From: Escherichia coli
Lineage (GTDB): Bacteria > Pseudomonadota > Gammaproteobacteria > Enterobacterales > Enterobacteriaceae
Strand: one strand, 5' to 3'
Assembly (NCBI RefSeq): GCF_001677475.2
Contig: NZ_CP015229.1
Length of the DNA stretch: 64,000 nt
Program-made: the position numbers and the translations under genes
Shown: positions 13,679-53,745 of the stretch, in pieces
Layout: every line of letters begins with the position of its first letter
How positions within the stretch are numbered: the first letter of the stretch is position 1
Notes under the pieces: model-generated
What the model was told of the DNA's origin: nothing
The model's input: only the letters and a program-made list of their open reading frames with translations
The model's database searches: none

Positions 13679-13806
13679 CTTTTTACCTTAACACTTCCAT
13701 AACAAGTCATCAGTAGAATACCTGATGAAACCTTGTTTAGAAACGATTGATAGTAAGTAAAAACAGCGGGGTGTATTGTGACGTTTTTATATCTACCGTG
13801 AATGTT

Positions 13807-51413: not shown

Positions 51414-52517
51414 TCACGGGTTAGCGGGGAAAATAGCCCCGAGTACCGTCTCCTGGCTTGCGCCAGTGACGGAAGGCAGATTTCCTGGTAATCCCGCAAG
51501 CGTCCGCCAGGCAAGCCAGGCGAAAGCCAATGCTTCCATGTCATCGCCACTAATGCCAACGGCATCGGTGGTGGTGACTTCTGTGCCTGGCAGTAATGCC
51601 GCCAGACGCGCCATGAGTAGCGGATTACGACTTCCTCCACCACATACCATCAATCGTTCGCAGCCACCGCTCAACAAAACTTGTTCAGAAATGGTCACGG
51701 CGGTGAGTTCTGCCAGTGTCGCCTGTACATCTCGGGGATCAACACCCGGAAAATGGCGCAAATGGCGCTCCAGCCAACCGTAGTTAAAGTATTCGCGTCC
51801 GGTGCTTTTCGGTGCAGGTTGCGAGAAATACGGGTCGCTAAGCATATTTTGCAGCAGTGGGAGAATGACTTTACCCGCCCGTGCCCACTCGGCATCTTTA
51901 TCGTAAGGTTTACCGGCCTGACGCCAGATCCAGGCATCCATCAGCATGTTACCAGGGCCGGTATCGTAGCCCCCTACCGGCTGCCCAGGAATGAGCAGTG
52001 ACAGATTGGCGATGCCGCCAATATTGAGCACCATTCGTCGCTCGGTTGGGTGAGCCAGCAGCGCATGATGGAACGCAGGTACCAGCGGTGCGCCTTGTCC
52101 TCCCAAGGCAATATCGCGACGGCGAAAATCACCGACAACCGTAATTCCGGTGCGTGCCACAATTTGATTGTTATCGCCAATCTGTAAAGTGTGTGGTGCC
52201 ACGCCCGTCGGTTCATGCCAGACGGTTTGACCGTGACAGCCGATCGCAACGATATCTCTCGCCTGCAGGTTTTGTTCCTTAAGCAAGGCATTGACCGCAT
52301 CAGCAAAAAGTCGCCCGAGTTGAGTATCAAGCTGTCCAAACTGCGTAAGCTGCTGGCCCTGGCAAATATCCAGTACAGCCTGTTTCAGAGACACCGGGAT
52401 CGGCCAGCTCAAACTTGCCAGCTGTGCGACCCGGTGTTCATCAATTGTCGCCAACACAACATCAACACCATCAAGGCTGGTGCCTGACATAACGCCAATA
52501 AAGCGGCCCGATTTCAT
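51414..52517 (-). CDS. anmK: Anhydro-N-acetylmuramic acid kinase
   Basis: ORF track 367 aa. Confidence 0.9.
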
Positions 52518-52650
52518 AGTTCATCCTTTTTCAATCTGACGTTTGCGCACCACTCAAACATAAACTTTTCGTGAATACCATGCGGAATGACCGATTTTTA
52601 CCGTTGGTAGTAAAACATTATCTTCAAATCAATAATCATCATGAATGTTT

Positions 52651-52667
52651 TGTTTATAATTGGTTGA
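52651..52667 (+). promoter_or_regulatory. PhoP-box-like direct repeat TGTTTA-N5-GGTTGA upstream of slyB
   Basis: Fits (T/G)GTTTA-N5-(T/G)GTTTA at 11/12 positions; slyB is a known PhoP-activated gene. Confidence 0.45.
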
Positions 52668-52790
52668 TCCTACTTTCATTATGATTTGCTCATATTTGGT
52701 AGAACATGTAACCATGGATTCACATATGCCATATACTTTGACCATGAGGGATGCTTGCGTGGCGTTTCATGGTGAACAGGAGATTTTTCA

Positions 52791-53258
52791 ATGATTAAAC
52801 GCGTATTGGTTGTTTCAATGGTAGGTCTGTCTCTTGTCGGTTGTGTTAATAACGACACCCTGTCAGGGGATGTTTATACCGCTTCTGAAGCGAAACAAGT
52901 ACAGAATGTCAGCTATGGCACCATCGTTAACGTACGTCCGGTACAGATTCAGGGCGGTGATGATTCCAACGTTATCGGCGCAATTGGCGGTGCTGTTCTT
53001 GGTGGTTTCCTGGGGAATACTGTTGGTGGCGGAACCGGGCGTTCTCTGGCTACTGCAGCAGGCGCTGTTGCAGGTGGCGTAGCCGGTCAGGGCGTACAGA
53101 GTGCAATGAACAAAACGCAGGGTGTCGAGCTGGAAATTCGTAAAGACGATGGTAATACCATCATGGTGGTACAGAAACAAGGCAACACTCGTTTCTCTCC
53201 GGGCCAACGTGTCGTACTGGCCAGCAATGGCAGTCAGGTGACCGTTTCTCCGCGCTAA
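52791..53258 (+). CDS. slyB: Outer membrane lipoprotein SlyB (glycine-zipper)
   Basis: ORF track 155 aa; lipobox LVGC; Gly-rich segment. Confidence 0.95.
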   Translation: MIKRVLVVSMVGLSLVGCVNNDTLSGDVYTASEAKQVQNVSYGTIVNVRPVQIQGGDDSNVIGAIGGAVLGGFLGNTVGGGTGRSLATAAGAVAGGVAGQGVQSAMNKTQGVELEIRKDDGNTIMVVQKQGNTRFSPGQRVVLASNGSQVTVSPR

Positions 53259-53266
53259 ATAAGTTT

Positions 53267-53294
53267 GCGTGTGGTCAGGTTACTGACCACACGC
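53267..53294. terminator. Hairpin GCGTGTGGTCAG-GTTA-CTGACCACACGC between convergent slyB and slyA
   Basis: 12-bp perfect stem read from sequence. Confidence 0.55.
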
Positions 53295-53304
53295 CCCCTT
53301 CATT

Positions 53305-53745
53305 TCACCCTTTGGCCTGTAACTCAATGATATTATGCTCAAGTTTTGCGATGAGCGTAATCAGTTGTTCCAGTTCCTCTGCGGAGATGCCATGTAAGAT
53401 TTCCGCGCGGGTTTTGTTAATAACAGCTTCCATTTCGCTGATCAGTGGCTCTGCCTTTTCCGTCAGTTTAATACGTTTAGCCCGACGATCGCTGGCACAA
53501 GTTTGACGCGAAATTAACCCTTTTTCTTCCAGTTGGTCCAGAGTACGGACCAGTGATGGCTGCTCGATGCCAATCGCTTTTGCCAGTTGAATTTGCGACT
53601 GGTCTGGAGGTAACTGATGGATATTGTGTAACGTAACCCAATGGGTTTGTGTTAACTCCAGCGGTTTCAGGCGATGGTCTATCAGAGCACGCCATATGCG
53701 CACCAACCGTGCCAGATCAGAACCTAGTGGCGATTCCAATTTCAT
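53305..53745 (-). CDS. slyA: MarR-family transcriptional regulator SlyA
   Basis: ORF track 146 aa; true start may be the TTG at 53737..53739 (144 aa). Confidence 0.9.

Follow-up and report, generated by a model that had tools for sequence, protein, structure and literature searches.

A conserved PhoP box in the Escherichia coli slyB promoter and candidate regulatory elements in the slyB leader

Introduction

SlyB guards the outer membrane under stress. In the ten enteric species studied by Perez et al. (2009, PMC2650801), no direct PhoP targets other than slyB and phoPQ are common to all, and SlyB lowers PhoP activity, a negative feedback (same source). The E. coli and Shigella slyB promoters carry the same PhoP box, with no difference in sequence (Minagawa et al. 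2003; Lin et al. 2018, PMC5775216). In Shigella flexneri 301 the box was given as ttGTTTAtaattGGTTgAt. Phospho-PhoP shifted the slyB upstream fragment that carries it in an electrophoretic mobility shift assay (EMSA), and deletion of phoPQ lowered slyB expression to 0.41x on arrays and 0.19x by qRT-PCR (Lin et al. 2018, PMC5775216). Optogenetic induction of PhoP in E. coli raised both slyB mRNA and expression from PslyB-gfp. Perez et al. (2009, PMC2650801) credit direct regulation of slyB in E. coli to Minagawa et al. 2003 (J Bacteriol 185:3696), and the footprint evidence specific to E. coli is second-hand here.

The Salmonella slyB promoter has been characterized directly, with the start mapped by S1 nuclease and the phosphorylated PhoP (PhoP-P) footprint by DNase I (Zwir et al. 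2012, PMC3335776). PhoP chromatin immunoprecipitation (ChIP) was also positive in vivo at Salmonella slyB. Like the E. coli promoter, that of Salmonella has a single direct box (TCGTTTAAGATTGGTTAAT), 12 nt from box to the -10 hexamer TATGAT and 6 nt from there to +1; its leader is 100 nt, vs 99 nt in E. coli (Zwir et al. 2012, PMC3335776). The boxes themselves differ (CGTTTA-AGATT-GGTTAA in Salmonella, TGTTTA-TAATT-GGTTGA in E. coli), and Harari et al. (2010) placed the two in different PhoP-box submotifs. On Yersinia pestis slyB a footprint of PhoP was likewise obtained, and a PhoP-dependent transcription start site (TSS) was mapped (Perez et al. 2009, PMC2650801).

A 12-nt spacing between box and -10 defines architecture I, the promoter class of mgtA, phoP, yrbL and slyB (Zwir et al. 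2012, PMC3335776). mgtA and phoP of E. coli and Salmonella, the prototypes of the PhoP box, share with slyB the direct repeat (T/G)GTTTA-N5-(T/G)GTTTA, the 12-nt spacing and induction by low Mg2+. However, both half-sites are perfect in mgtA (GGTTTA-TCGTT-GGTTTA) and in phoP, whereas the downstream half-site of slyB is imperfect and is conserved in that form across genera.

Here we describe the slyB upstream region in a 64-kb stretch of E. coli DNA (the window; all positions are window positions unless stated). A preliminary description of the window had reported a PhoP-box-like repeat upstream of slyB.

Results

The slyB locus and its correspondence to K-12

Of 5,426 complete E. coli genomes, 5,425 contain a match of 95-100% identity to the 901 bases around the box, and the features annotated under this match in RefSeq are anmK and slyB. 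The identity of slyB rests on the RefSeq annotation in these 5,425 genomes. The gene order is tyrS-pdxH-mliC-anmK (- strand), then slyB (+), slyA (-) and ydhIJK (+). slyB shares its upstream region of 273 bp with the divergent anmK. The following features frame the gene.

52791-53258, + strand: slyB coding sequence, a 155-residue outer-membrane lipoprotein (open reading frame and RefSeq annotation)
52778-52782, + strand: Shine-Dalgarno sequence AGGAG of slyB (from the sequence; invariant in alignments)
53267-53294, no strand assigned: 12-bp G+C-rich inverted repeat, terminator-like (terminator scan), between the convergent slyB and slyA

The terminator scan called the inverted repeat on the slyA (-) strand, where the T-rich tail sits. 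It probably serves slyB as well as slyA.

The anmK-slyB intergenic region (52518-52800) is the same as that of K-12 MG1655, base for base (100%). This allows published coordinates of K-12 to be carried over to the window, in which a position equals the NC_000913.3 position − 1,667,085, or the NC_000913.2 position − 1,665,109.

A near-consensus PhoP box upstream of slyB

The sequence TGTTTATAATTGGTTGA occupies 52651-52667 on the slyB strand. The preliminary description had read it as TGTTTA-TAATT-GGTTGA, about 125 bp upstream of slyB. Both the letters and the coordinates are exact, and the distance from the end of the box to the slyB ATG (52791) is 124 nt. The figure of about 125 bp was right, but its end point was the ATG; what matters is the 25 nt between the box and the TSS. 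The elements of the promoter are as follows.

52651-52667, + strand: PhoP box, TGTTTA (52651-52656)-TAATT-GGTTGA (52662-52667), at -41 to -25 relative to the P1 start of slyB
52668-52679, + strand: 12-nt spacer from box to -10 hexamer, conserved in length and not in sequence
52680-52685, + strand: -10 hexamer TATGAT of the PhoP-dependent promoter P1, at -12 to -7; TA...T is invariant in a 25-genus alignment
52692, + strand: slyB transcription start (+1, an A), transferred from the TSS of Kim et al. 2012 through the identity with MG1655
52692-52790, + strand: slyB 5' leader of 99 nt, from the same TSS

The box agrees with the consensus (T/G)GTTTA-N5-(T/G)GTTTA at 11 of its 12 specified positions. 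The sole mismatch is in the second half-site (GGTTGA), where position 5 is G and not T. As in architecture I promoters, there is one box only and its orientation is direct, box and slyB both being on the + strand.

A near-consensus repeat might arise by chance in A+T-rich intergenic DNA, with PhoP acting on slyB from elsewhere or indirectly, and we asked how unusual the site is in its surroundings. The pattern KGTTKA-N5-KGTTKA has one match across the 64 kb, counting both strands, and that match is the slyB box. Dinucleotide shuffles of the window (n=100) contained 0.16 matches on average, with at least one match in 13/100. When all 128,000 positions on the two strands were scored against the consensus, two reached 11/12, none reached 12/12 and 19 scored at least 10/12. 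Uniqueness within 64 kb is thus weak evidence, and alone only mildly unusual. The case against chance comes from the placement of the site. The runner-up in the intergenic region scores no more than 9/12 and is on the strand opposite to slyB. Chance is excluded because the box is on the slyB strand, inside the 273-bp upstream region and exactly 12 nt before TATGAT, with the mapped start 25 nt from its end.

The mapped start places the box over the -35 position

The supplement of Kim et al. (2012) lists one slyB TSS, at NC_000913.2 1717801 (+), with 193 reads and a 5'UTR of 99 nt. The 51-mer given upstream of it is TGAATGTTTTGTTTATAATTGGTTGATCCTACTTTCATTATGATTTGCTCA, ending in ...TATGATTTGCTCA. 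That map records primary 5' ends, enriched for 5'-triphosphates, in MG1655 at mid-log phase in glucose minimal medium (Kim et al. 2012). The medium was an ordinary minimal one and not low in Mg2+, so the map fixes the position of the start and not its dependence on PhoP.

With the start at A52692, which is NC_000913.3 1,719,777, the box lies at -41 to -25. The -10 hexamer lies at -12 to -7. The preliminary description had made its reading depend on a start compatible with activation from the box, and the mapped start is compatible. TATGAT matches the -10 consensus at 5/6 positions, and the start lies 6 nt past it, within the 6-7 nt of architecture I. The sequence at the -35 position, TAATTG (52657-52662), matches TTGACA at 1/6. 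The box overlaps this position and ends 12 nt upstream of the -10. This layout from box to start is the geometry of a class II, architecture I PhoP promoter, as at mgtA and phoP.

A generic sigma-70 scan called no promoter upstream of slyB. The silence is explained by the lack of a -35 hexamer, and is expected of a class II promoter.

The mapped starts also bear on whether the box serves the divergent anmK (start codon 52517, - strand), or both genes, and not slyB alone. Within the shared 273-bp region, 134 nt separate the box from the start codon of anmK, and PhoP boxes are described in the literature as functional in either orientation. However, slyB is the gene faced both by the mapped start and by the -10 with its 12-nt phasing to the box. 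Kim et al. (2012) list no minus-strand TSS in the intergenic region, and the sole start they assign to anmK is 624 nt upstream, inside slyB. anmK is also absent from the PhoP targets named in Perez 2009, Zwir 2012 and Lin 2018. We consider a role for the box at anmK very improbable, and take it to be the PhoP box of slyB.

Two observations concern anmK itself. The start assigned to it is a weak minus-strand TSS at 53141 (11 reads), antisense within slyB and giving a 624-nt leader (Kim et al. 2012); this is a hint that transcription of anmK may cross slyB and the slyB PhoP promoter from the opposite direction. Separately, a block AATGCTATG...TAATAnTTTTTAACAAT, at 52560-52600 on the anmK side of the intergenic region, is conserved in most genera. 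On the minus strand it resembles an anmK promoter (-35 TTGTTA / 18 nt / -10 TAGCAT). The resemblance is less clear in E. coli.

PhoP binds a Shigella fragment that carries the same box

The 19-mer reported as the Shigella flexneri 301 box is identical to 52650-52668 (Lin et al. 2018, PMC5775216). The fragment shifted by phospho-PhoP in that work therefore contained the same box, which also speaks against chance resemblance. The proposal in the preliminary description, that the repeat is a PhoP box in agreement with Mg2+/PhoP control of slyB, is supported by the mapped start and the architecture I spacing together with the Shigella EMSA shift and the phoPQ-dependence of slyB there.

A different regulator of the OmpR/PhoB family (e.g., RstA, PmrA or CpxR) could in principle be the primary one, with the effect of PhoP passing indirectly through a cascade. 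Other regulators of the family recognize sites of similar form and periodicity, direct repeats of a hexamer with an 11-bp period. PhoP activates rstA, which lies in the same window with a box of its own, and the second half-site at slyB departs from the PhoP consensus in most species. However, the conserved core GTTTA/GTTnA is unlike the motifs of CpxR (GTAAA), PmrA (CTTAAT) and RstA (TACA-N6-TACA). Purified PhoP-P gives footprints on slyB promoters of Salmonella and Y. pestis and an EMSA shift with the slyB fragment of Shigella, and PhoP ChIP is positive in vivo. These data leave little room for another primary regulator, which we regard as a slight possibility. Direct control by PhoP is the reading that we adopt.

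Independence of the alpha-subunit C-terminal domain (alpha-CTD) was demonstrated for mgtA only, and class II activation of slyB was predicted from the position of the box over -35 (Zwir et al. 2012, PMC3335776). By analogy with mgtA, which has the same architecture, we infer that class II contacts would be made at slyB and that alpha-CTD would not be needed.

The rstA gene (ATG 13808) provides a second site of the same kind. A PhoP-box-like repeat, TGTTTAGAAACGATTGA, is found at 13734-13750 on the + strand, 58 nt before the start codon, and scores 10/12. Both Perez et al. (2009, PMC2650801) and Lin et al. (2018, PMC5775216) count rstA/rstAB among the targets of PhoP. Given the box and this published status, the window contains two members of the PhoP regulon.

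The box and its spacing are conserved in Enterobacterales

We examined the orthologous upstream regions in one genome per species. Genomes were scanned with a degenerate pattern for the slyB coding sequence, not the promoter, and 300-nt upstream regions were collected from 106 species. A composite site was defined as a box scoring at least 9/12, followed by exactly 12 nt and TAnnnT.

The composite site was present on the slyB strand in 87/106 Enterobacterales species, and on the opposite strand in 0. In contrast, shuffled upstream regions contained it in 2.0±1.3 of 106, with a maximum of 7. Position and phase are thus kept far beyond the roughly 2 species expected, which further excludes chance. 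Taken with the phase in E. coli and the binding data, the conservation effectively refutes chance resemblance, which we now regard as the least probable of the explanations considered, with a probability close to nil.

The positive species belong to more than 25 genera and include Enterobacteriaceae, Yersiniaceae, Erwiniaceae and Sodalis-like symbionts. The box is thus retained upstream of slyB orthologues across enteric genera, as for a member of the core PhoP regulon. The remaining 19 species are mainly Pantoea, Rosenbergiella and symbionts, most of them with a weaker box at the same position (for example, AATTGA-N5-TGTTGA + 12 nt + TATGCT). The composite site is 135-150 nt before the ATG in Enterobacteriaceae and at about -210 in Yersinia. 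Yersinia loci have CGTTTAATATTGGTTGA + 12 nt + TAAGCT upstream of slyB, and the distance of ~210 nt from box to ATG, vs 140 nt in E. coli, indicates a longer leader in Yersinia.

An unbiased MAFFT alignment of 25 genera gave the same picture. GTTTA-N6-GTT-A and TA..AT stand out as conserved islands, and the 12-nt spacer and the upstream flank are free to vary. Position 5 of the downstream half-site (52666), where E. coli has its mismatch, is T in only 13/86 distinct sequences; A is found in 47, G in 20 and C in 6. T is rare at this position, and the apparent imperfection of the E. coli box is therefore the norm for the family. At the first base of the upstream half-site the most frequent base is a non-consensus C.

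Within E. coli, an identical 48-mer was present in 4,152/5,425 genomes. We inspected two variant strains. One has a G→A change four bases upstream of the box, and the other (TUM17543) has GGTTAA in place of GGTTGA. Both variants fall outside the box or at a position that is already non-consensus.

Candidate elements in the slyB leader

The leader between the P1 start and the Shine-Dalgarno sequence contains further elements that we consider candidates.

52732-52737, + strand: -10-like hexamer TATACT of a candidate PhoP-independent promoter, P2 (from the 25-genus alignment)
52741-52773, + strand: predicted leader hairpin, with outer stem ACCAUGA/UCAUGGU and inner stem GAUGCU/GGCGUU (minimum free energy [MFE] fold)
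52749-52762, + strand: GGAUGCUUGCGUGG, candidate pairing site for MgrR, a small RNA (sRNA) activated by PhoP; 14 contiguous bp with MgrR nt 58-71
L125 3818-3915, - strand: mgrR (outside the leader, in a separate locus with its own coordinates)

The sequence ATGCCATATAATTT, 40 nt into the leader, forms a second block that is almost invariant over the 25 genera, with TATAAT in most genera and TATACT in E. coli. A weak -35-like GTAACC (52708-52713) lies 18 nt upstream of TATACT. Zwir et al. (2012, PMC3335776) state that, in both Salmonella and E. coli, slyB is also transcribed from another start that is independent of PhoP. The ATGCCATATAATTT block is a candidate for the -10 of this PhoP-independent promoter.

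The putative hairpin sits just 5' of the Shine-Dalgarno sequence and directly downstream of the TATACT block. In 52 Enterobacteriaceae sequences, and with the full hairpin specified by hand for the covariation test, pairing was found in 81% of cells vs 37-53% with slid partners. In the same set, double-change cells numbered 41 vs 19±3 in shuffles. RNAalifold predicted no fold from either the order-wide or the 68-sequence alignment of leaders, and from the 52-sequence set only a 3-pair core. The fold of the E. coli leader was no stabler than that of shuffles (z = 0.16), and Rfam returned no family match at E≤1 over 52500-53320. In Yersinia, Erwinia and Tatumella, which are not Enterobacteriaceae, inspection by eye suggests hairpins of other sequence at the same place.

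MgrR nt 58-71 (CCAUGCAAGCAUUC) can pair with slyB 52749-52762 at a calculated -23.9 kcal/mol. A contiguous helix of 14 bp was reached by 24/1000 shuffles (P ~0.024) in a longest-contiguous-helix test. This test replaced a full-length RNAduplex comparison of MgrR and slyB, which returned an unrealistic 87-nt interaction no better than shuffles. MgrR nt 58-71 are conserved and single-stranded in Rfam STnc560. On the slyB side, conservation in other genera is limited to GGAUGCU. slyB is among the MgrR partners shared by TRIC-seq and RIL-seq; the TRIC-seq supplement gives no coordinates for MgrR-slyB.

This complementarity suggests an incoherent feed-forward loop, in which PhoP activates both slyB and MgrR, and MgrR would act on slyB mRNA. 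In the fuller scheme the PhoP box would be the first layer of a denser and in part undescribed control region, combined with a P2 transcript that would start at the hairpin and MgrR pairing in such a loop. This scheme is a tentative one, and we think it rather less probable than not.

Discussion

Based on these results we are confident, to the point of near certainty, that in E. coli 52651-52667 serves the PhoP-dependent slyB promoter as its PhoP box, an activator site of class II (architecture I). In the mechanism that we propose, low periplasmic Mg2+ or other PhoQ signals lead PhoQ to phosphorylate PhoP. A head-to-tail dimer of phospho-PhoP would then occupy the two direct half-sites of TGTTTA-N5-GGTTGA (-41 to -25) and stand in for the missing -35 hexamer. 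Together with TATGAT 12 nt downstream, it would allow sigma-70 RNA polymerase to start at A52692, and the product would be a slyB mRNA with a 99-nt leader. The circuit runs from low Mg2+ through PhoQ and PhoP-P to slyB, and SlyB then reduces PhoP activity.

The slyB PhoP box is an already known, well-characterized and ordinary operator. Its confirmation here adds no new biology; it is a textbook ancestral operator of a two-component system. Our analysis widens a published nine-species comparison to ~100 species with a quantified control, and the confirmation shows that a first-stage reader can spot a genuine regulatory site from sequence alone. Forward-looking value is found only in the leader, in the candidate P2, the hairpin and the complementarity to MgrR. 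If the feed-forward loop is true, it would shape the timing or the ceiling of SlyB production.
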